Below are positions 1 through 31,590 of a stretch of 39,908 nucleotides of DNA, piece by piece. The stretch's first letter is position 1; each line of letters opens with the position of its first letter. The notes below the pieces were generated by a model. That model worked only from the letters and a program-made list of their open reading frames with translations. It had not been told where the DNA came from and did no database searches. This DNA comes from a virus. Its lineage: Duplodnaviria > Heunggongvirae > Uroviricota > Caudoviricetes. The DNA lies in IMG/VR virus record IMGVR_UViG_2703718871_000021, positions 1-39,908 of that record, one strand, 5' to 3'. The position numbers and the translations under genes are program-made.

Positions 1-270
<270 letters not shown>

Positions 271-469
271 TTACCGTTAAATCATTTTAAAATCAGTAAG
301 TTGTATCGAGTTTGTATGCTTTACTGTCATTAACTTACTGTATGTTGATCCAGTGTATTTAACCTTGATAAACTCAGTCCAGCAACACAAAACCGCAACA
401 CATTGCATTTTGTCCCGTAGAAAAGACTTGTATGTGTGAGCTTGTTTTCTGCGCCTACGCAGATAAGGA

Positions 470-1873
470 TTGAGAATGCCGCGCACTGTAACACATAATC
501 CGGATAGCCCCAATAATGACGATGTTTTAGCCGCATCTGAAAAATGGGACGCCTGTAAACCCCCCTATACCAGCGCACACATGAAAATCTGTGTTGCTGC
601 CGCTAAAATCATCCTCGCTGCTTCCGGCGTGGCTCGCCGTTCCAAATACGAAAAAGAGAACTATCTCCGTATCGATTTCAGCAAAGCCGGTAAGGTTACA
701 TTTTATGCCGAGTTTCCAAAAAAGATGGGCCTCAAAGGTAAAAAGCTCGGCGAGTGGCCGGAGCTCGCTATCCAGCTGGCGCGCGAAAAAGCGCTAGGTA
801 TGGCTGACGGTGGCCTGCGGGCAGAGTCCGTACATGCAGCGCTGGAAATGTACCGGGATGACCTCAAAGCCAAAGTCGCCCGGCAGAAGCTGAGCCCGGA
901 CAGTTTCACAACCTACGGGGTGCGTATCGACCGGATTAAAGCCACGTTCGGCGAGCGCGAGGTGTTCAGCGACGTAACATACAATCGGCTGGTGGAAGTG
1001 CTGGACGAGTGGATCGCCACTCGCTCGAACAATAACGCCCTGGAGTTGTTTGCCGAGCTCCGTCGGTTCTGGAAGTTCTGCGCACCTACTCTTTGCAATG
1101 GCCGCAATGTTGCCGCCAGTCTGCCAGATGATTATGTTTCCTCCCGCGTACAGAAACCCACCCCCACACGGCTTTTTACCGATATTGAATCAATCGCCCG
1201 ACTCTGGCTCAATGTTGCTGCCTGCACCTCTGTACACCAGAAGAATGCTGTTCGCTTCATGATCATCACTGGTGTTCGTCCGATTAATGTCCATAACCTG
1301 CGCTGGGACTACGTTCACGAGGAGGCTGGTGAAATTGTTTATCCGGAAGGGGTTATCGGCATGCGAGGGGCTATGAAAACACAAAAGGCTTTCCGCCTGC
1401 CGATAACGCCTGAGATCCGGCGGATTATCGACGAGCAGAAAGCCTGGCGTGATTCAGTTCCTGAGTGCAACAGGGATTATGTATTTTTGCAGCCACGTGA
1501 TCCAATGCAGCCATTTTCAAAACGATCACTGGATAAGCTGGTGAAAACATACAGCCCGGACGGGGCTGTAAAAGGAATAAAACATGATGGGACTGTTAAA
1601 GGGAAAGACGGTGCATTTAATACGATGTGCCGTAAATTCCTTAAGAGCAATGTTATTGCCTTGATGAAGGAAAGAGGCTATTCCCGCTCAGACCGAAGGG
1701 AAATCAGCCTCCTTTGCCTTCACCACTCCAGCAAGTCAGATGACCCGATGGCAGAACATTACGACTTTTCTGATGAGATTTTACAGGAAGAGATTGCGTT
1801 GAAGCGCGAAGCTTTCGAGGCTCACGAGCGGAGCATACTTGCGCAGGTGGCATTGCTACGGCGGCGAGGTTAA
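470..1873 (+). CDS. phage tyrosine integrase (site-specific recombinase)
   Basis: 467-aa ORF with AGGA-type RBS before ATG 470; first gene inside the element, convergent with an AlpA-like excisionase gene; size and N-terminal arm-binding-like region fit P4-type integrases; catalytic R-H-R-Y residues not verified by eye, start codon uncertain. Confidence 0.65.
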   Translation: MRMPRTVTHNPDSPNNDDVLAASEKWDACKPPYTSAHMKICVAAAKIILAASGVARRSKYEKENYLRIDFSKAGKVTFYAEFPKKMGLKGKKLGEWPELAIQLAREKALGMADGGLRAESVHAALEMYRDDLKAKVARQKLSPDSFTTYGVRIDRIKATFGEREVFSDVTYNRLVEVLDEWIATRSNNNALELFAELRRFWKFCAPTLCNGRNVAASLPDDYVSSRVQKPTPTRLFTDIESIARLWLNVAACTSVHQKNAVRFMIITGVRPINVHNLRWDYVHEEAGEIVYPEGVIGMRGAMKTQKAFRLPITPEIRRIIDEQKAWRDSVPECNRDYVFLQPRDPMQPFSKRSLDKLVKTYSPDGAVKGIKHDGTVKGKDGAFNTMCRKFLKSNVIALMKERGYSRSDRREISLLCLHHSSKSDDPMAEHYDFSDEILQEEIALKREAFEAHERSILAQVALLRRRG

Positions 1874-2070
1874 TACTGGCTGCGACATTTTTGAATAAAA
1901 GCGTCGACATTTCGGCGCTCATAACGAACTACTTTTGCACTGAAACGAATTGGTGCCAAGATAGCCCGATGACGATGCTTAATATTCCACTCACATAGCG
2001 TTTTCTGTGTAATACCTAACTTTTGGCATACTTCATCCGGGGTGAGTAAATCGTCGGGTTTCTCGCTCAT
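1870..2070 (-). CDS. AlpA/Xis-family excisionase or transcriptional regulator (helix-turn-helix)
   Basis: 66-aa ORF; LLTPDEVCQKLGITQKTLCEWNIK resembles the AlpA-type HTH; sits beside the integrase as excisionases usually do. Confidence 0.65.
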   Translation of the reverse strand: MSEKPDDLLTPDEVCQKLGITQKTLCEWNIKHRHRAILAPIRFSAKVVRYERRNVDAFIQKCRSQY

Positions 2071-3461
2071 GCTATACCTCTCTTTTTCATGGCATCGAGC
2101 AGGATGTCCTGCACTGTTCGTTTTGAGTTGCGCCGCTCCATCACCATTTCGTCCATAGTGTCGGCAGCAATAATGTGGTGAATAAATACCGGACGATTGT
2201 GTCCGGCCTGTATCTGTCTGGTTGGGCCGATACGTTCAATAATTTGCTGATACTGCTCCAGGTCCCACCAATGTGAGAAAAATACCAGTATGTTTCCGCC
2301 GTCCTGCATGTTCAGACCGTGGCCCGCGCTGGCTGGGTGTGCAAAGAGAACAGGAATCTTTCCGGAATTCCAGTCACGTAGTGTCTGTGGATCCTGGTCG
2401 AGGTTACGACCGCGAGGAAATGCTTTAAGCAAGCGTTCAAGATCGTGTTTCCAGTGATAAGCAACCAGCACAGGTGCGCCAGCTGCTTCGGTCAGTATGC
2501 TGTCCAGCGCCTGTAGTTTGGTGTCATGCAGTTCTGACCAACTTCCGGTGTCATCTGTGTATACTGCGCCGCTGGCGATTTGCAGACACTTCAGTGTCTT
2601 TGCCGCGGCGTTCGGTGCTTCGATGCCTTCGCCATTCAGCTCGAGGAACATTTCCTTTTCCATTTCACGATACTGCTGACGGGCCTTCGGCGGCATATCC
2701 ACGCGGATTACGTTATGGATGGGGTCTTTGATATCGAACCAGTCGGTCGCATCCAGCGAGAGGGTCACATCGGCTAACGCTCGCTGTATTTCACCCTGTG
2801 AGTGAGCAAAAGGCTCCAGTTTGGTCCAGCTCTGTCCCGGAAACTGTATCGATTTGAACCAGCGTGAGGTAAACGCGCCGTAAGTGCGCCCGAGACGTTG
2901 CCCCAGGTCCACAAACCACGATTGTCCCCACAAATCTACCAGGCCGTTCGGTGCTGGCGTACCGGTGAGATTTATCCAGCGCCGGACATACTTGTGCGCC
3001 ACTTTGCCCAGCGCCGCCGCGCGCTTACCACCACCTCGCAGCCGGAAGGATTTTAGCCGGGTGCTTTCATCTGGAATGACAGTACCGAACGGCCATCGTT
3101 CTCCCAATTCCTCAACCAGCCAGACAAGGTTATCGTAGTTGATGGTGAACACGCTCGCGTTGTTGTTCGCCAACGCTGCAGAGCGCGCTTTGGCATTACC
3201 AACAATTGGTTGTACCTCGATATTGCGCAAATGCCCCCACTTCAGTGCTTCATCCGGCCATGTGCTGGCAGCCACGCGCAGCGGCGCGAGAACCAGCGCA
3301 GGTTGTGTTTCTGCACCCGCCATGAAGAGGTCTTCCAGCGTAGTGAGTGTCGCTACGGTTTTACCCATTCCCATACCCGCCCAGATGTTGCCGCGCAGAA
3401 TGTTAGTTTGGTGATTGATTATGAGGTTTTGATAAATTCTGGGGTGGAATATGCTATTCAT
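2067..3461 (-). CDS. SNF2/DEAD-like superfamily-2 helicase (phage replication/recombination)
   Basis: 464-aa ORF; Walker A GMGMGKT near N-terminus, DExx-type box VIPDEST, C-terminal helicase-like region; start overlaps the excisionase stop (operon). Confidence 0.8.
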   Translation of the reverse strand: MNSIFHPRIYQNLIINHQTNILRGNIWAGMGMGKTVATLTTLEDLFMAGAETQPALVLAPLRVAASTWPDEALKWGHLRNIEVQPIVGNAKARSAALANNNASVFTINYDNLVWLVEELGERWPFGTVIPDESTRLKSFRLRGGGKRAAALGKVAHKYVRRWINLTGTPAPNGLVDLWGQSWFVDLGQRLGRTYGAFTSRWFKSIQFPGQSWTKLEPFAHSQGEIQRALADVTLSLDATDWFDIKDPIHNVIRVDMPPKARQQYREMEKEMFLELNGEGIEAPNAAAKTLKCLQIASGAVYTDDTGSWSELHDTKLQALDSILTEAAGAPVLVAYHWKHDLERLLKAFPRGRNLDQDPQTLRDWNSGKIPVLFAHPASAGHGLNMQDGGNILVFFSHWWDLEQYQQIIERIGPTRQIQAGHNRPVFIHHIIAADTMDEMVMERRNSKRTVQDILLDAMKKRGIA

Positions 3462-3522
3462 TAATACACCTATGGTAGAATATGGTCACTTCTCTCTCTA
3501 TATATAACTAACGGAGGCGGGT

Positions 3523-18856: not shown

Positions 18857-20479
18857 ATGCCGTTACCATTCCCCTTCGATTTTAAACATCCTGATTACCA
18901 GATGGTTTTTGAATGGCGGATGGAACGCCTACAGCGCATTCGCCAGAATCCTGAAATATTGCCTGCACTAAAACAGTTTTACCGAACTAATCCGGCTCAG
19001 TTCATCATCGACTGGGGCATGACAACGGACCCGCGTAATATTGATTATGGCCTGCCGGTGACCATTCCGTTTTTACTCTTCCCTAAGCAGGAGGAGTGGA
19101 TCCACTGGATTATGGAACGCTGGGGCAATCGGGAGAATGGTATTACCGAAAAATCCCGTGAAATGGGGCTCAGTTGGACCGCGATCGGACTGGCATGTTC
19201 GCTTTGTCTCTTCAACAAAGAAATGGTTATCGGTTTCGGCTCCCGTAAAGAGGAATACGTCGACAGCACCGGTGACCCGAAAGCATTGTTCTGGAAGGCG
19301 CGCAAGTTCGTGGAAACACTGCCTGTAGAGTTTCGCGGTTCGTGGAGCGAGAAGAAGCACGCGCCATATATGCGTGTTGAGTTTCCTGAAACTGGTGCCG
19401 TTATCAAAGGCGAGGCTGGCGATAATATTGGTCGTGGTGACCGTACCACGCTTTATCTGGTTGATGAGGCTGCATTCCTTCAGCGTCCTCTGCTGATTGA
19501 TGCGGCGTTGTCACAAACGACGCGTTGCCGTATCGACCTGAGTTCAGTTAACGGCATGGCGAACCCGTTCGCTCAGAAGCGTCATGGCGGGAAGATACCG
19601 GTATTCACATTCCACTGGCGGGATGATCCTCGCAAGGATGAAGAGTGGTATCGCAGGGAATGCGAGAAAATCGATAATCCGGTGGTGGTGGCACAGGAAC
19701 TTGATCTGAACTACAGCGCATCAGCGGAAGGCGTCCTGATTCCATCCGAATGGGTACAGGCTGCCGTTGATGCGCATATCAAACTGGGTATCCAGCCAAC
19801 AGGCAAACGACTTGGCGCGATGGATGTCGCCGACGAAGGCAGGGACAAAAATGCCTTTTCCACCCGTCATGGCTTCCTCCTGGAAAATGTGCGGGAATGG
19901 TCCGGTGTGGGCAGCGACATTTATCAGTCCGTCGAGAAGGTTTTCGGCTTTTGCGAACAGGATAACCTCGAAGAGTTTCGCTTTGACGAGGACGGGCTGG
20001 GCGCTGGCGTTCGCGGCGATGCACGCGCTATCAACGAACTGCGTAACGCTGCGCGTCGACCGTCAATACTCGCCACACCGTTTCGAGGTAGTGGCGCGGT
20101 ATTTGATCCGGATGATGAAGCTGTTCGCGGGGACAACGGGCAAGCCGCACGTCTGAACAAGGACTTCTTCGCTAACGCCAAAGCCCAAAGCTGGTGGCGG
20201 TTACGTAAACTTTTTCAGAATACCTGGCGCGCCGTGGTTGAAGGTATGGCTTACAACCCGGACGAAATCATCTCAATCAGCAGTAGCATGGCACTCAAAG
20301 ATAAACTCATCATCGAGCTTTCGCAGCCGACCTATTCCATTAATGGTGTGGGAAAAATCGTTATTGATAAACAGCCTGATGGGACCCGGTCGCCAAATCT
20401 TGCCGACTCGGTGATGATCAACTATGCCCCAATGAATTCAGCCCTGAACATCTGGGAGTTGCTAGGGAGACAGGCCTGA
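18857..20479 (+). CDS. terminase large subunit
   Basis: 540-aa ORF between TerS and portal; Walker B-like [11 protein letters not shown]; nuclease-like acidic motif [11 protein letters not shown]; canonical Walker A not obvious by eye. Confidence 0.7.
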
Positions 20480-21945
20480 TGGCACGAAACAAACAAGCCC
20501 TGCGGCGAACTGCGCAGGCCACAGCTGATGGTTATGAGAATTTTATCGCCCGCGTAGGGATGCAGACACCTAACCAGCACTCAGCATCCACCTACCGGGC
20601 TAATTTCACCAGTCGTAACCGCATGCTGGTGGAATGGTCCTATCGTTCTTCCTGGATCATCGGCGAAGCAGTCGATGCTATCCCGGATGATATGACCCGC
20701 AAAGGCATTCGCATCACTTCGGAAATTGATGCAAAAGATCGTGGCATTCTCGAATCACAACTGGATGATTTGCAAATCTGGGATGCGCTGAATGACGTGC
20801 TGAAATGGTCGCGCCTCTACGGCGGCGCGGTGGGTTTCATCATGATTGAGGGGCAGGCACCAATGACCCCGCTGCGACCCGAAACCATCGGTAAGGGCAA
20901 GTTTAAGGGGATTCTCCCGCTCGACCGCTGGATGATTGACCCGGTACTGACCCGCCGCATTAAAGATATGGGGCCGGACCTGGGTAAACCTGAGTTTTAT
21001 GATGTGGTGACCACAGCAACGGGAATTCCTGCCTGGCGCATTCATCACAGTCGCCTGATTCGCTTTGATGGCGTCACGCTGCCATTTCAGCAGAAGATGA
21101 CCGAGAACGAATGGGGAATGTCGGTTGTAGAGCGTATCTGGGATCGTCTTACCGCGTTCGACAGCGCTACTGTCGGTGCGGCGCAGCTGGTCTACAAGGC
21201 GCATTTGCGTACCTACAGCGTGGAGAAGCTACGCGAGCTTATCGCACTTGGTGGTCCTGCGTATGAAGCGTTGCTGAAGAATATTGACCTGATTCGACAG
21301 TTCCAGAGCAATGAAGGCATGACTCTCATGGACTCGCGGGATAAGTTTGAAACCCATCAGTACAGCTTCAGTGGTCTGGATGACATCCTTTCACAGTTTG
21401 CAGAACAGATTAGTGGCGCTGTTGGTATCCCACTGGTGCGGTTGTTCGGACAGTCCCCGAAGGGATTTTCTACCGGCGATGCAGACCTTGCCAACTATTA
21501 CGACCGGGTAAGTTCGTTGCAGGAGAGGCGTTTACGTCTTCCGGTGCGGCGGATACTGGACATCATGCATCGTTCGGAACTTGGCAAGCCGCTCCCGGAT
21601 GATTTCACATTTGAGTTTAACCCGCTCTGGCAAATGTCTGATGTCGATCGTTCAACGGTGGCATTAAATACCACCAACGCAATCAGTACAGCGCTGGGTG
21701 ATGGTCTGATGACACTGAAAGCTGCTATGACTGATTTGCGCGAAAATTCTGACGTAACCGGCATCGGGGCATCCATTACCGACGAGGACATCGAGAATGC
21801 CGAAGACGAAGCGCCGCCCGGCATCGGCGAACCTGATGACGAACCGCAGGAACCGTCAGGCGGAAATCCGCTATCGAACCAGCCTACGCAGGATAGCGCG
21901 GGCGGTCGGGGACATCGTAAATGGTCGCTACGATGGTTCAAATGA
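20479..21945 (+). CDS. portal protein
   Basis: 488-aa ORF following terminase with overlapping start; size and acidic C-terminal tail typical of portals. Confidence 0.65.
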   Translation: MARNKQALRRTAQATADGYENFIARVGMQTPNQHSASTYRANFTSRNRMLVEWSYRSSWIIGEAVDAIPDDMTRKGIRITSEIDAKDRGILESQLDDLQIWDALNDVLKWSRLYGGAVGFIMIEGQAPMTPLRPETIGKGKFKGILPLDRWMIDPVLTRRIKDMGPDLGKPEFYDVVTTATGIPAWRIHHSRLIRFDGVTLPFQQKMTENEWGMSVVERIWDRLTAFDSATVGAAQLVYKAHLRTYSVEKLRELIALGGPAYEALLKNIDLIRQFQSNEGMTLMDSRDKFETHQYSFSGLDDILSQFAEQISGAVGIPLVRLFGQSPKGFSTGDADLANYYDRVSSLQERRLRLPVRRILDIMHRSELGKPLPDDFTFEFNPLWQMSDVDRSTVALNTTNAISTALGDGLMTLKAAMTDLRENSDVTGIGASITDEDIENAEDEAPPGIGEPDDEPQEPSGGNPLSNQPTQDSAGGRGHRKWSLRWFK

Positions 21946-22570
21946 CAGTATCACGGAAATTATTGAGGCGCTGGAACGCTACAGTGAAATCATAACCCCC
22001 TGGGCGACAAAGGTCGCGGAAAACTTTACCGCCGACATTGTGCGCAAGAATGATGAGCAGTGGCGTAAACACAGCAAAACCATCAGCCGTGAGCTACGCA
22101 ATCTGGTAAACAGTGCCCCTCCAGGGCAGGTGATGAAATCCATCGTTGCTGAACAGGTTAAGTACATCAAATCGCTACCCCTCGAGGCGGCTGACAGGGT
22201 GTACGACATCCAGAATCGGGCGATAGAAGCTGTTGTTACCGGTGGGAGAGCGGAACATTTTGCTAAAGAAATAGCCGCATCGGGTGCTATAGCAAAGTCC
22301 AGAGCTGACCTGATTGCCCGTACTGAACTTGGACGTGCAACCGGCGCGCTGGATCAGGCGCGTGCGCTGTCAATTGGTTCGAATGGTTATATCTGGCGTA
22401 CAGCCGAAGATGGTGATGTCAGGCATTCTCATCGGGAAATGGAAGGTAAATTTGTCGAATGGGGCAAACCTCCAACGCTTGACGGCATGACAGGTCACGC
22501 TGGCGAGCTCCCGAATTGTCGCTGTTATAAAGAAATTGTTTTTCCCACCTCCCATTCTTACCCCGCCTGA
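21797..22570 (+). CDS. MuF/SPP1 gp7-like head morphogenesis protein
   Basis: 257-aa ORF; C-terminal RTELGRATGALDQARALSIGSNGYIWRTAEDGDVRHSHREMEGKF...PNCRC resembles the Mu F-like domain; 5' end overlaps portal by ~150 nt out of frame, start uncertain. Confidence 0.65.
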   Translation: MPKTKRRPASANLMTNRRNRQAEIRYRTSLRRIARAVGDIVNGRYDGSNDSITEIIEALERYSEIITPWATKVAENFTADIVRKNDEQWRKHSKTISRELRNLVNSAPPGQVMKSIVAEQVKYIKSLPLEAADRVYDIQNRAIEAVVTGGRAEHFAKEIAASGAIAKSRADLIARTELGRATGALDQARALSIGSNGYIWRTAEDGDVRHSHREMEGKFVEWGKPPTLDGMTGHAGELPNCRCYKEIVFPTSHSYPA

Positions 22571-28971: not shown

Positions 28972-29424
28972 ATGGAATTCGAAATTAAAGGCGTGAAATA
29001 TCGCGCGGCAAAACTCAGCGTTTTTGACCAGCTGAAAGTGACCCGTAAACTTCTGCCGGTACTGGCGGGAATGATGTCAGATTTCGGGAGCATTCGCTCC
29101 CGTTTGCCTGCTGACGGCAAAATCGACACCGTGAAATTCGAGCAGTTAAAACCGGTGTTTGAAACCATGCTCCCGCGTATCGCTGAGGAACTGTCTTCCC
29201 TGACCGAAGATGACACCGATGCGATTATTCATCCCTGTCTTGCGGTGGTATCGCGGCGTCATATGGACGGATGGGTGCCGGTATTTACCCATGGCGAACT
29301 GATGTTTGATGATATTGACTTGCTGGTCATGCTTCATCTGGTGGCGCGGGTGGTCGCCGATTCGCTGGGAAATTTTTTGCCTACACCCCTTACCAGCACG
29401 ACGCAGAGCCTGCAACAGGGCTGA
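28972..29424 (+). CDS. tail assembly chaperone (short form)
   Basis: 150-aa ORF immediately before the tape measure gene; slippery heptamer near its 3' end. Confidence 0.6.
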   Translation: MEFEIKGVKYRAAKLSVFDQLKVTRKLLPVLAGMMSDFGSIRSRLPADGKIDTVKFEQLKPVFETMLPRIAEELSSLTEDDTDAIIHPCLAVVSRRHMDGWVPVFTHGELMFDDIDLLVMLHLVARVVADSLGNFLPTPLTSTTQSLQQG

Positions 29425-29621
29425 CGTTTAACAGCCTGCCGGACGGGCTGTCCTACCTTCTCAATCCGGTTGACGCCGGGTTAATTCCTTATACAGCACT
29501 TAAAGATGGCTCTGTCGATTTGTACGACATTGCTCTCTTGAATGACCATCTGGCGGTAAAAGCGGATAACCAGCGGCGCATTGAGAAATGGAGAGAGGAT
29601 AATGAACGCCGAGACTATTAA
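28972..29621 (+). CDS. tail assembly chaperone, extended form via predicted -1 programmed frameshift at T_TTT_TTG (29373-29379)
   Basis: The -1 frame after the slippery site stays open for ~80 codons (…GLTFNSLPDGLSYLLNPVDAGLIPYTALKDGSVDLYDIALLNDHLAVKADNQRRIEKWREDNERRDY) and ends at 29621, overlapping the tape measure start. Confidence 0.45.
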
Positions 29622-31590
29622 AGATTTCCTCGTCTCGCTTGGCTTCAGTGTGGATGATGCAGGAGCGAAAAAATTCGGTTCTGTCCTCGCCGGTACAACT
29701 GCAAATGTCATCAAAATGGGGCTGGCCGTCGAAGGAGCTGCGCTGTCCGTGGTGGCCTTCACGGCTAAGATCGCCTCCGGTCTGGATAATCTTTACTGGG
29801 CGTCACAGCGCACCGGCGCGACAGTCCAGGGAATTCAGTCTATTGGCTATGCGGTTTCGCAGGTTGGCGGCAGCGTGGACGCTGCGCGATCTTCTCTGGA
29901 AAACCTCTCCCGGTTTATTCGTAATAATCCCGGGGCGGAGGGATTTCTGAATCGCCTGGGCGTACAGACCCGTGATGCCAGCGGTAACATGCGTGACATG
30001 GCCGCTATCTTTACGGGCGTTGGACAGAAACTCAGCAGCATGCCGTATTACCGGGCTAACCAGTATGCGCAGATGCTGGGCATTGACGAAAATACCCTTA
30101 TGGCGATGCGCCGGGGTGTGGGTGGCTTCTCCGGGCAGTACAGCGCAATGGCGAAAGCTATCGGCTTCAATGCTGACGAGGCGGCCAGAAGCTCCAACAA
30201 ATTTATGACCTCCCTGCGTGAGTTTAGCGCGATGGCAGGCATGGCCCGTGACAAAATCGGCTCTAATCTTGCGGGTGGGCTTGCAGGTTCGCTGGACACC
30301 CTGCGCCGCCATATCCTGGACAACTTCCCTCGTATCGAGCAGACCCTGACGAAAGCCATAAAAGGCATTCTGGCGCTCGGGGATATTATCGGGCGGCTGT
30401 TCTTCAGACTGATTGAGGGGACATCAGGCCTTATCACCTGGTGGCAATCGCTGGATAAGCAAACGCGGGAGTTGATCTCGCTGTTTGGCGCACTGACGAT
30501 TGCGCTGCGCATTCTGAACAGTACGTTCTGGATGTCGCCGGTTGGCCTCATTACCGCGCTGGCGGCGGGGATTGCCCTCCTGTGGGAGGACTATCAGACC
30601 TGGAAGGAAGGCGGCGACAGCCTGATTGACTGGGGCAAGTGGAAACCGGAGGTCGATGCCGCGCTGAAGATGGTTCGTGACCTTAAAACGACCGTTAACG
30701 ACCTGGCGAAAGCGCTGGCGAAACTACTCAATATTGACCCCAAATCATGGTCCCTGAAGTGGGATTTCAGCAACTTCATCGACCAGATGGGCGAATTCAG
30801 CAAAATGCTGAACATGATCGCCGACCTGCTCAACGCTATCAAAGATGGCCGCTGGGCTGATGCCGTCAGCATCGGCAAACAGATACTTAATCAGGGCAGC
30901 GAAAATCCGTCAGCGATGCCGATGGTTACAGACAGCGCTAATAGTACTGCCGACTGGATTAAAGAGCACTGGGGATTCGATCCCCGCAGTGTGGGCCGGA
31001 CGGTACGCGGCTGGTTTGGTGATGATGAGCCGGAACAACATGCACAGGCTACGAAACGAGGAGAACGGAATAACAATCCGGGAAACCTTAATTTTGCTGG
31101 TCAGGCGGGGGCTTCTCTTGAACGCCCGGGCGGGCGATTTGCCAGATTCGAAACTGCCTTTGATGGATTACGGGCTCTTGCTCGTCAGTTAATGTTGTAC
31201 GCCGGACGGGGAATAAACAGCGTGGAGAAAATTGTCTCTACCTGGGCGCCTGCGTCTGATAATAACAACACAACTGCGTATATCAGGGCTGTATCGCAAC
31301 GACTGGGAGTGGATCCCCGGGCTGCCCTGAATATGAGCGATCCGCAAACCATGTCAGCATTGATGAGCAGCATTATCCAGCATGAGAATGGAAGAAATAT
31401 CTATTCTCGAGAGCTGATTAATAAGGCTGCCGTGGCGGGAATTAGTGGCAAAGTGACAGAGGTTAACCAGCAAAATACCTACCACATTTACGGTGGCGGA
31501 GATCCGCACGCTGTCGGTAATGAGGTTGCACGTCGGCAACAGTCTGCAAATGCTCAGGTCATGCGAAGTAATCAGGTGAGGGTGGGTTAG
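29602..31590 (+). CDS. tail tape measure protein
   Basis: ~662 aa from ATG 29602 (RBS GGAGAGAGGA); long Ala/Gly/Leu-rich helical protein in the position after chaperone genes; hydrophobic central segment. Confidence 0.75.
   Translation: MNAETIKDFLVSLGFSVDDAGAKKFGSVLAGTTANVIKMGLAVEGAALSVVAFTAKIASGLDNLYWASQRTGATVQGIQSIGYAVSQVGGSVDAARSSLENLSRFIRNNPGAEGFLNRLGVQTRDASGNMRDMAAIFTGVGQKLSSMPYYRANQYAQMLGIDENTLMAMRRGVGGFSGQYSAMAKAIGFNADEAARSSNKFMTSLREFSAMAGMARDKIGSNLAGGLAGSLDTLRRHILDNFPRIEQTLTKAIKGILALGDIIGRLFFRLIEGTSGLITWWQSLDKQTRELISLFGALTIALRILNSTFWMSPVGLITALAAGIALLWEDYQTWKEGGDSLIDWGKWKPEVDAALKMVRDLKTTVNDLAKALAKLLNIDPKSWSLKWDFSNFIDQMGEFSKMLNMIADLLNAIKDGRWADAVSIGKQILNQGSENPSAMPMVTDSANSTADWIKEHWGFDPRSVGRTVRGWFGDDEPEQHAQATKRGERNNNPGNLNFAGQAGASLERPGGRFARFETAFDGLRALARQLMLYAGRGINSVEKIVSTWAPASDNNNTTAYIRAVSQRLGVDPRAALNMSDPQTMSALMSSIIQHENGRNIYSRELINKAAVAGISGKVTEVNQQNTYHIYGGGDPHAVGNEVARRQQSANAQVMRSNQVRVG

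Follow-up and report, generated by a model that had tools for sequence, protein, structure and literature searches.

Across the whole MuF superfamily the MuF-domain gene is placed immediately 3' of the portal gene (PMC5576092), and portal binding, at 1-2 copies per capsid, is known only for the MuF protein of SPP1, gp7 (PMC5576092). How far can two such neighbouring genes overlap? A survey of 338 prokaryotic genomes recognized no genuine co-directional overlap longer than 60 bp, the longest verified case being holD/rimI, at 32-56 bp and conserved across Enterobacteria (Palleja et al. 2008; PMC2478687). The window analysed here, a stretch of 39,908 nucleotides (nt) of a Caudoviricetes virus (IMG/VR record IMGVR_UViG_2703718871_000021), contains a portal gene and a MuF-like head morphogenesis gene that are both open, in different frames of the same strand, over 149 nt (Table 1). 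Comparison with relatives makes it very probable that this is a genuine, ancient, dual-coding overlap that constrains both genes. At the level of sequence, the comparison demonstrates that two open reading frames (ORFs) are delimited independently, that the internal start signal and the frame relation are conserved, that MuF is under purifying selection, and that selection acts against portal-frame stops and on particular residues of the portal tail.

The first-pass annotation of the window had reported an out-of-frame portal/MuF overlap of about 150 nt, which is confirmed, with MuF codons beginning 1 nt after portal codons (the +1 frame). It had offered three readings without choosing among them: MuF starts at an internal codon further downstream, the portal is shorter than its ORF suggests, or the overlap is real and constrains both sequences. 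Judged from the single sequence, the overlap is not beyond chance. By our own estimate, (61/64)^50, about 50 stop-free out-of-frame codons have a chance of ~0.09, and an overlap is not provable from one sequence because longest-ORF calls often over-extend. Longest-ORF calling yields other overlaps of 35-79 nt in the window, among them the same-strand pairs 26441-26830/26760-27368 (71 nt) and 32482-33546/33468-33878 (79 nt). These two are probably over-extended starts, since the Prokaryotic Genome Annotation Pipeline (PGAP) keeps no other overlap larger than 35 nt in the ~99.9% identical prophage of Escherichia coli O55:H7 CB9615. The case for a real overlap rests entirely on comparative evidence.

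For the comparison, 80 genome loci were retrieved from Enterobacterales, Burkholderiales (Cupriavidus, Ralstonia, Pandoraea), Pseudomonas and some Alphaproteobacteria. A pattern search for the MuF-frame anchor YRTSL..IA located it in 75 of 90 loci. The pattern missed five loci (L045-L049) and the beta-proteobacteria, clades that were inspected separately, and on inspection L045-L049 and some other missed loci carry the same MuF N-terminal segment. Codon-column statistics use 47 non-redundant loci and start-codon statistics 51 distinct sequences, and ratios of nonsynonymous to synonymous substitution (dN/dS) were obtained by OLGenie-style counting on close pairs of 80-98% nt identity, with bootstrap intervals.

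The N-terminal ~55 amino acids (aa) of MuF, which from ATG 21797 begins MPKTKRRPASANL, are kept in homologues of 47-98% identity. Residues ~19-70 align in homologues that are 60-70% identical overall, from Xenorhabdus, Pantoea, Morganella, Providencia, Arsenophonus, Erwinia and Dickeya, and are also conserved in Yersinia, with the pattern S.QAE..YRTSL..IA..VGDIVNGRYDGSNDSVTEI..AL..YS..I..WA. From genus to genus, residues ~20-55 rank with the best-conserved stretches of the protein, and G38, I40, Y45, D46, S48, N49 and I55 are invariant among the aligned homologues. MuF-frame dN/dS is 0.13 for aa 21-48 (bootstrap 0.06-0.25) and 0.31 for aa 2-20 (0.14-0.67). The conservation of aa ~20-55, together with the low MuF-frame dN/dS, excludes any MuF start past ~21851. 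It thereby reduces to a negligible chance the view that the overlap is an annotation artefact, with MuF starting after the portal stop, at the 21962 equivalent or at GTG 22040, and no dual coding at all. Several GenBank and RefSeq records do start MuF at one or the other of these positions, and Palleja et al. found co-directional overlaps that exceed 60 bp to be mispredictions without exception (PMC2478687). However, 21962 is ATT in the window, not a canonical start codon, and the 55 residues upstream of it hold the most conserved N-terminal motif of the family (YDGSND), at a dN/dS of 0.13. The length signature of misprediction is also absent, as MuF orthologues share the N-terminal extension and portal orthologues share the tail (480-491 aa).

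Where, then, does MuF translation begin? In 65 loci, nearly all from Enterobacterales, an ATG lies 20-27 codons before the anchor Tyr, and GAGGA, GGAG or AGGA sits exactly 8 nt before that ATG; three Yersinia loci have GTG in its place. The downstream gene has, in other words, its own conserved start signal (GAGGA-N8-ATG/GTG) within the upstream gene. Among the distinct sequences the MuF-frame codon at this position is ATG in 42 of 51 and GTG in 2, and in the window ATG 21797 is the first ATG after the in-frame stop at 21755-21757. The signal is embedded in a conserved portal peptide, ITDEDI-x-[NDHS]-A (I-T-D-E-D-I-E-N-A in the window). The portal codon that supplies the "AT" is AAT in 26 sequences, GAT in 15 and CAT in 1 (42/42), never AAC, GAC or CAC; in Yersinia it is AGT, which alters the portal residue with a start codon (GTG) still present. 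Portal Glu436, which lies within the Shine-Dalgarno (SD) sequence, is GAG in 41/45, versus 36-62% GAG at five other conserved portal Glu columns. From this pattern, MuF translation can be placed at 21797 with good probability.

PGAP prefers the internal ATG 21836 (Met14) in CB9615 and other close relatives, which would cut the overlap to 110 nt and leave codons 1-13 untranslated. The resulting 244-aa form is the commonest in databases, and in some distant homologues a Met is called at the column neighbouring Met14. However, ATG 21836 is found only in the clade of the window (it is GCG or TCG in 84-86% identical relatives) and no SD was found before it, whereas the upstream ATG with its GAGGA-N8 is kept at portal synonymous sites, and MuF aa 2-20 are under constraint in the MuF frame (dN/dS 0.31). 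We consider initiation at 21836 improbable, and even with it the overlap would still be long and real. Aligning homologues to find a conserved start, the check proposed with the first-pass annotation, thus yielded an ATG or GTG with an SD at the same place in most Enterobacterales relatives, and the first of its three readings fails beyond ~21851 and is unlikely at 21836.

The geometry of the overlap is also kept. Both frames are open over it in diverged relatives, and the portal frame is the MuF frame -1 in every locus with a portal match. In most Enterobacterales loci the portal stop lies 71-107 nt past the anchor and the overlap is 128-179 nt, most often 149 or 152; in most Burkholderiales loci (Cupriavidus, Ralstonia, Pandoraea) with an assignable start it is 161-167 nt. 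Five Xenorhabdus loci (L026, L027, L030, L031, L035) have portals of 556-560 aa with a different ~70-aa segment ahead of the tail (...AERIMGSVG|NGF...), named "Anti-CBASS protein Acb1-like N-terminal domain-containing" in one source; the ...DS...FLRWF tail is nevertheless kept in these loci, where MuF has GGAG as its SD and overlaps the portal gene by 134-149 nt. In E. coli E2348/69 (L009) a single G-to-A, at the equivalent of 21922-21924, turns portal TGG (Trp482) into a TAG stop, removing the last 7-8 portal residues, and is at the same time MuF G43R; 40/47 loci have Gly conserved there. The full portal tail is intact in five further E. coli prophages from the same divergent group. The E2348/69 change may be a sign of prophage decay, and it illustrates the mutational cost of the overlap.

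On the portal side, the frame is held open for longer than MuF coding alone would predict. When MuF synonymous codons were redrawn from the usage of each locus outside the overlap, a portal-frame stop appeared at a median of 7-39 codons past the MuF ATG in all but one locus (mostly 8-24), and the real portal stop lies 44-59 codons past it. The resampling P is 0.008-0.18 for long-overlap loci and 0.80 for one Cupriavidus locus, with a median of 0.05 over the non-redundant loci; Fisher combination of 17 lineages that are mutually less than 72% identical in nt, and not fully independent, gives P = 4e-7. Synonymous sites are near saturation between lineages (pi3 ~0.6), so that portal-frame stops had ample chance to arise.

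Selection on particular portal residues is visible in the choice of MuF codons. MuF Ile33 is ATA in 43/44 (baseline outside the overlap 14%) and with the G that ends codon 32 (46/47) gives portal Asp472-Ser473. Tyr45 is TAC in 44/44 (baseline 62%), where TAT would make a portal TGA; Asp46 is GAT in 42/44 (52%), giving portal Trp486, where GAC would give Arg; Gly47 is GGT in 44/47 (30%), giving portal Phe487; and Leu30 is CTA in 35/47 (6%), giving portal Thr. None of 65 conserved-aa columns outside the overlap is so skewed (top-codon frequency at most 0.91, median 0.49), and normalised codon entropy at conserved-aa columns is 0.46 in the overlap versus 0.84 outside (Mann-Whitney P=1.9e-4). D472, S473, R485 and W486 do not vary among 34 independently sampled portals, and conservation reaches at least 90% at L484 and F487; the tail consensus is [DN]P[VI]SN.PT.DS......W.LRWF followed by K, KR or TGQR. 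Purifying selection is therefore found in each frame, on the portal side as a dN/dS of 0.40 in the linker zone, the frozen sites and the codon entropy. A beta-proteobacterial clade has a different tail, QWLS[AR]WRS, over a different MuF loop, NGFP[PAH]GDP, yet in 6/6 loci both Trp codons are kept by a third-position T in the MuF frame. The second of these T bases is fixed although the MuF residue there varies (Pro, Ala, His), which is hard to explain except by portal-frame selection.

These data also bear on whether the overlap could be real for MuF with the portal tail being functionless read-through to a chance stop. Read-through would suit a portal dNN/dNS of 0.91 over the last 28 codons, the predicted disorder of the tail, a portal stop that drifts in position, the short tails of some lineages, and the place of the stop, within a MuF motif that easily gives rise to stops in the portal frame. 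It would not account for the length of the open portal frame, which in nearly all lineages exceeds two- to five-fold that predicted from MuF constraint alone, for the freezing of MuF synonymous sites (the rare codons ATA and CTA among them) exactly at portal D-S and L-R-W-F, or for the beta-proteobacterial clade keeping portal Trp residues through different MuF residues. We give a functionless tail only a slim chance. Nor is the portal shorter than its ORF, the second of the earlier readings: there is no earlier stop, the frame is held open and the C-terminal residues are selected. It is the third, a real overlap constraining both sequences, that the conservation of both ORFs, the start signal, the frame relation and selection in both frames bear out.

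Could the frozen third positions instead mark an element that acts at the nucleotide level, such as a packaging signal, a site bound by a protein or an RNA structure? In a set of 20 diverse sequences GATAGC and TACGATGGTTC hardly vary, as might be expected of such an element. However, it is on the frozen bases that the portal residue depends (W or R, F or L/I/V, avoidance of a stop), and the beta-proteobacterial clade keeps both Trp codons with another nucleotide string, making this very unlikely to be the explanation. RNAalifold predicted no consensus pairs in 20 diverse copies of 21857-21982, and the RNA-structure version was dropped on that result.

A programmed +1 (or -2) ribosomal frameshift within the overlap, yielding a portal-MuF fusion, would be compatible with the frame relation that is constant in all loci with a portal match. 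Some actinobacteriophages have annotated portal-MuF fusion proteins, and four database proteins of 655-697 aa are portal-MuF fusions. Each of those four, however, is a singleton with a junction of its own: one has an indel near GCGGGCGG, one an indel near CGCCGCCC, one a 124-nt deletion and one a further indel. The 655-aa fusion (P0125) resembles a 124-nt deletion between the repeats at 21784-21799 and 21908-21923, joining the portal to MuF aa 41, and the three of 696-697 aa (P0121, P0123, P0128; from Logan and NCBI assemblies) switch frame within window ~21810-21905, two of them beside the G/C-rich runs just named. They are probably sporadic indels or mutations, or sequencing errors. With fusion junctions that all differ, and neither a slippery site nor a stimulatory structure found, programmed frameshifting was rejected; a conserved SD and ATG belong to MuF itself and a selected C-terminus to the portal itself, and the likelihood that a frameshift underlies the overlap is close to nil. 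The two repeats are 16-nt direct repeats, GAGGACATCGAGAATG (21784-21799) and GGGGACATCGTAAATG (21908-21923), and the second copy offers a purine-rich box, N8 and ATG 21921 in the third frame, with a 24-codon ORF. This SD-like copy is probably incidental.

Along the dual-coding overlap, constraint is handed over from one frame to the other. Portal aa 428-447 show portal-type diversity, with the third position most variable. Over the next ~20 codons all three positions are about equally variable, and in this low-complexity zone dN/dS is 0.31 for MuF and 0.40 for the portal. Net charge over the first 25 codons is -1 to -8 in the portal (+1 in one Xenorhabdus locus) and +4 to +9 in MuF, a pattern kept in most lineages and weakest on the portal side in Xenorhabdus, Cupriavidus and Chitiniphilus. 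GAR and GAY codons shifted by one base give AAG/AGG-type codons, so that the acidic composition of the portal or the basic composition of MuF may be a by-product of the other. MuF aa 24-53 then have the MuF-type pattern, with third positions most variable save for the specific frozen sites, and here the portal's own "synonymous" position is the most conserved (synonymous observed/expected 0.23-0.46). An AlphaFold2 (AF2) model of MuF from a 24-sequence alignment, with a predicted local distance difference test score (pLDDT) of 51 and the N-terminal 150 residues below 50, weakly suggests helices flanking the YDGSND loop.

Several observations weigh against a dual-coding overlap selected in both frames. 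Shorter overlaps without the Trp motif occur in Arsenophonus and Chitiniphilus (92 nt), Pseudomonas (59 nt), Ochrobactrum (26 nt) and E. coli E2348/69 (128 nt), so that the motif is not indispensable everywhere. The portal dNN/dNS of 0.91 comes from a noisy estimator (0.48-2.4), and averaged portal selection is undetectable; it shows only in dSN/dSS, which is 0.33 from few sites, and in the codon-by-codon analysis. Portal selection is thus focused on a few residues of a tail that is free elsewhere. Part of the conservation of the SD and ATG is confounded with that of the portal peptide DEDIENA, although the choice made at portal synonymous sites (xAT never xAC, and GAG in the SD) speaks against the start signal being a mere by-product of portal selection. 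The loci share descent, and the shuffle and Fisher P-values overstate their independence. AF2, at low-to-moderate model confidence, gives the portal moderate confidence and its tail, aa 444-488, as low-confidence coil, and none of the solved portal homologues covers the tail. Literature searches found no proteomics, Ribo-seq or N-terminal sequence for these proteins, and the paper on Salmonella phage SEN34 is without virion proteomics.

Table 1. Positions in the window of the portal and MuF genes, the parts of their overlap and the MuF starts used in public records
Feature	Position	Strand	Description
Portal gene (PF06381 / DUF1073 family)	20479..21945	+	ORF, 488 aa; last 49 sense codons and stop in common with MuF
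MuF / SPP1-gp7-like head morphogenesis gene	21797..22570	+	ORF, 257 aa; proposed start ATG 21797
Region read in two frames	21797..21945	+	149 nt; MuF aa 1-49 and two bases of codon 50; portal aa 440-488 and stop
MuF Shine-Dalgarno GAGGA	21784..21788	+	Within portal codons Glu436-Asp437, 8 nt before the ATG
MuF start ATG	21797..21799	+	Made by portal codons Asn440 (aAT) and Ala441 (Gcc)
Internal ATG, MuF Met14	21836..21838	+	PGAP start in close relatives (244-aa product); probably not the main start
Low-complexity zone	21800..21856	+	Basic arm of MuF (aa 2-20); acidic, Pro-rich linker of the portal (aa ~441-459)
MuF-dominated zone	21857..21945	+	Conserved MuF QAEIRYRTSLRRIARAVGDIVNGRYDGSND; portal frame reads ...NPLSNQPTQDSAGGRGHRKWSLRWFK and stop
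Portal Asp472-Ser473 (GAT AGC)	21892..21897	+	Fixed via MuF synonymous site Ile33 = ATA and the G ending codon 32
Portal C-terminal Trp482-x-Leu-Arg-Trp486-Phe-Lys-stop	21922..21945	+	Co-encoded with MuF loop Asn-Gly-Arg-Tyr-Asp-Gly-Ser-Asn-Asp
Imperfect copy (13/16) of the SD-spacer-ATG 16-mer	21908..21923	+	Read from the sequence; original at 21784-21799
MuF start of 257-aa records	ATG 21797		Metagenome gene callers
MuF start of 244-aa records	ATG 21836		PGAP, CB9615 and other close relatives; commonest database version
MuF start of 202-aa records	21962 equivalent		SEN34, IAI1, E2348/69 and five further E. coli prophages (GenBank, RefSeq)
MuF start of 176-aa records	GTG 22040		Phage 689R2

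How would such an arrangement be expressed? MuF would be translated on its own from ATG 21797, via GAGGA at 21784-21788, on a late polycistronic mRNA, and ribosomes on the portal frame would read a further 49 codons in the 0 frame before reaching the TGA at 21943-21945. The portal frame sets the sequence as far as about portal aa 445, its synonymous sites having been recruited for the MuF SD and ATG. The next ~20 codons encode an acidic, Pro-containing portal linker and a basic MuF arm, both loosely constrained. Over the last ~30 codons the MuF frame dominates, with a helix and the invariant YDGSND loop, and MuF synonymous sites are frozen where they specify portal Asp472-Ser473 and the terminal Trp-x-Leu-Arg-Trp-Phe.

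We infer that a short functional peptide, aromatic and basic in character, forms the end of the disordered portal tail, and that the overlap would keep MuF linked to its own portal. The tip of the tail could plausibly be a docking motif within the procapsid, and portal-translating ribosomes perhaps dampen MuF initiation or translation; both are plausible because portal C-termini face the capsid interior and SPP1 gp7 binds the portal at low copy. A more speculative history, which we think unlikely, is that the ~40 C-terminal residues of the portal arose by overprinting onto a pre-existing muf 5' end and then gained the selected Trp-x-x-x-Trp tip, the tip being a docking site for MuF or another internal head protein. 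If that were true, the DNA for the binding peptide of one partner would also encode the most conserved N-terminal loop of the other, cognate portal and MuF would be locked against recombination, and a low MuF:portal ratio would be tuned by the same arrangement. The short tails of Pseudomonas, Ochrobactrum, Alkanindiges and Oxalobacter would then represent the ancestral, nearly non-overlapping state.

The identities of the two genes, portal and MuF-like in the first-pass annotation, are upheld by Pfam. The portal matches PF06381 Phage_portal_3 over aa 55-402 (E 8.5e-106, 354.1 bits, gathering cut-off 33.8), and MuF matches PF04233 Phage_Mu_F over aa 137-243 only (E 4.5e-17, 63.2 bits, gathering cut-off 29.6). 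Solved portals related to the portal protein in sequence include those of Pam3 (8hds; E 4.8e-37, aa 15-413) and E217 (gp19); PDB searches with MuF, as a single sequence and as a profile, gave nothing useful and no solved relative. The gene order in the window and its relatives is TerS, TerL, portal, MuF, DUF2213 and the DUF2184 capsid gene. The portal gene thus sits between the terminase large subunit gene and the head morphogenesis and scaffold genes, as fits PF06381, and the MuF gene lies directly downstream of it, as fits the MuF family (PMC5576092). Relatives of the window are present in 339 of 5426 complete E. coli genomes, and the related phages include Escherichia phage vB_EcoM-689R2 and similar phages (98% identity), Citrobacter phage Omnitron (86%) and SEN34 (84%).

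Some further observations concern the surroundings. The 540-aa ORF 18857-20479, called terminase large subunit elsewhere, has no Pfam match at E<=0.01 and is named "hypothetical protein" or "TerL protein" in RefSeq; one base is common to its stop and the portal ATG at 20479. Window 28972-29424 and a ~165-nt ORF just downstream correspond in CB9615 to a tail assembly chaperone gene and, after it, a small "DUF6889 family protein" gene. The pair precedes the tape-measure-like ORF 29581-31590 and looks like a G/GT -1 frameshift pair annotated as two genes. The left end of the window, 1-3500, is not exactly collinear with CB9615 (NC_013941.1; L090), and the integrase-like ORF is at 470-1873 rather than at the ~676-2073 expected from CB9615 coordinates, so that the window is probably from another strain whose head module is near-identical.

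Database annotation of MuF is inconsistent. Public records use four starts, giving proteins of 257, 244/245, 202 and 176 aa (Table 1). Three of the four drop 13-81 residues, and the two shortest forms cut into conserved sequence, so that the 202- and 176-aa records delete the most conserved N-terminal motif. The problem touches hundreds of E. coli and Salmonella prophage entries. In E. coli 2011C-4251 (L007), PGAP calls MuF a frameshifted pseudogene, with a one-base insertion near the equivalent of window ~22040-22060, close to where the alignment ends.

The overlap is a well-supported counter-example to the rule that co-directional overlaps exceeding 60 bp in bacterial genomes are errors of annotation (PMC2478687). 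It illustrates the partitioning of selection between two frames along one overlap, and draws attention to a selected C-terminal peptide, as yet unstudied, on a portal of the DUF1073 family. Separation-of-function genetics is also possible, as a single synonymous change in one gene can be a start-loss, nonsense or missense change in the other, and the immediate value lies in annotation and in the design of such mutants.

Overlapping phage genes are already known as a phenomenon, to which the portal/MuF case adds a new, well-supported instance. The A/B/K and D/E genes of phiX174 and the Rz/Rz1 genes of lambda are overprinted or overlapping, and mostly nested one within another. The portal/MuF overlap is like these in using one strand and two frames, with separate start signals and both products under selection, and unlike them in overlapping tail to head, in involving two structural genes that are both large and ancient, from a temperate phage of ~40 kb, and in handing constraint over from one to the other. 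The tail assembly chaperones G and GT are a programmed-frameshift pair in phage morphogenesis, and as there, two frames are used over one stretch of late-operon mRNA; unlike G/GT, portal and MuF start and stop independently, and no slippery site or conserved fusion was found. SPP1 gp6-gp7 and Mu gpH-gpF have the same gene order, with the MuF-domain gene directly 3' of the portal gene (PMC5576092), but literature searches found no overlap described for any portal/MuF pair, unlike the 149 nt shared out of frame here. Finally, like holD/rimI, this is a co-directional overlap backed by conservation of both protein ends, but whereas holD/rimI spans 32-56 bp, the portal/MuF overlap, at 149 bp in the window and 128-179 bp in relatives, extends well beyond the 60-bp limit.

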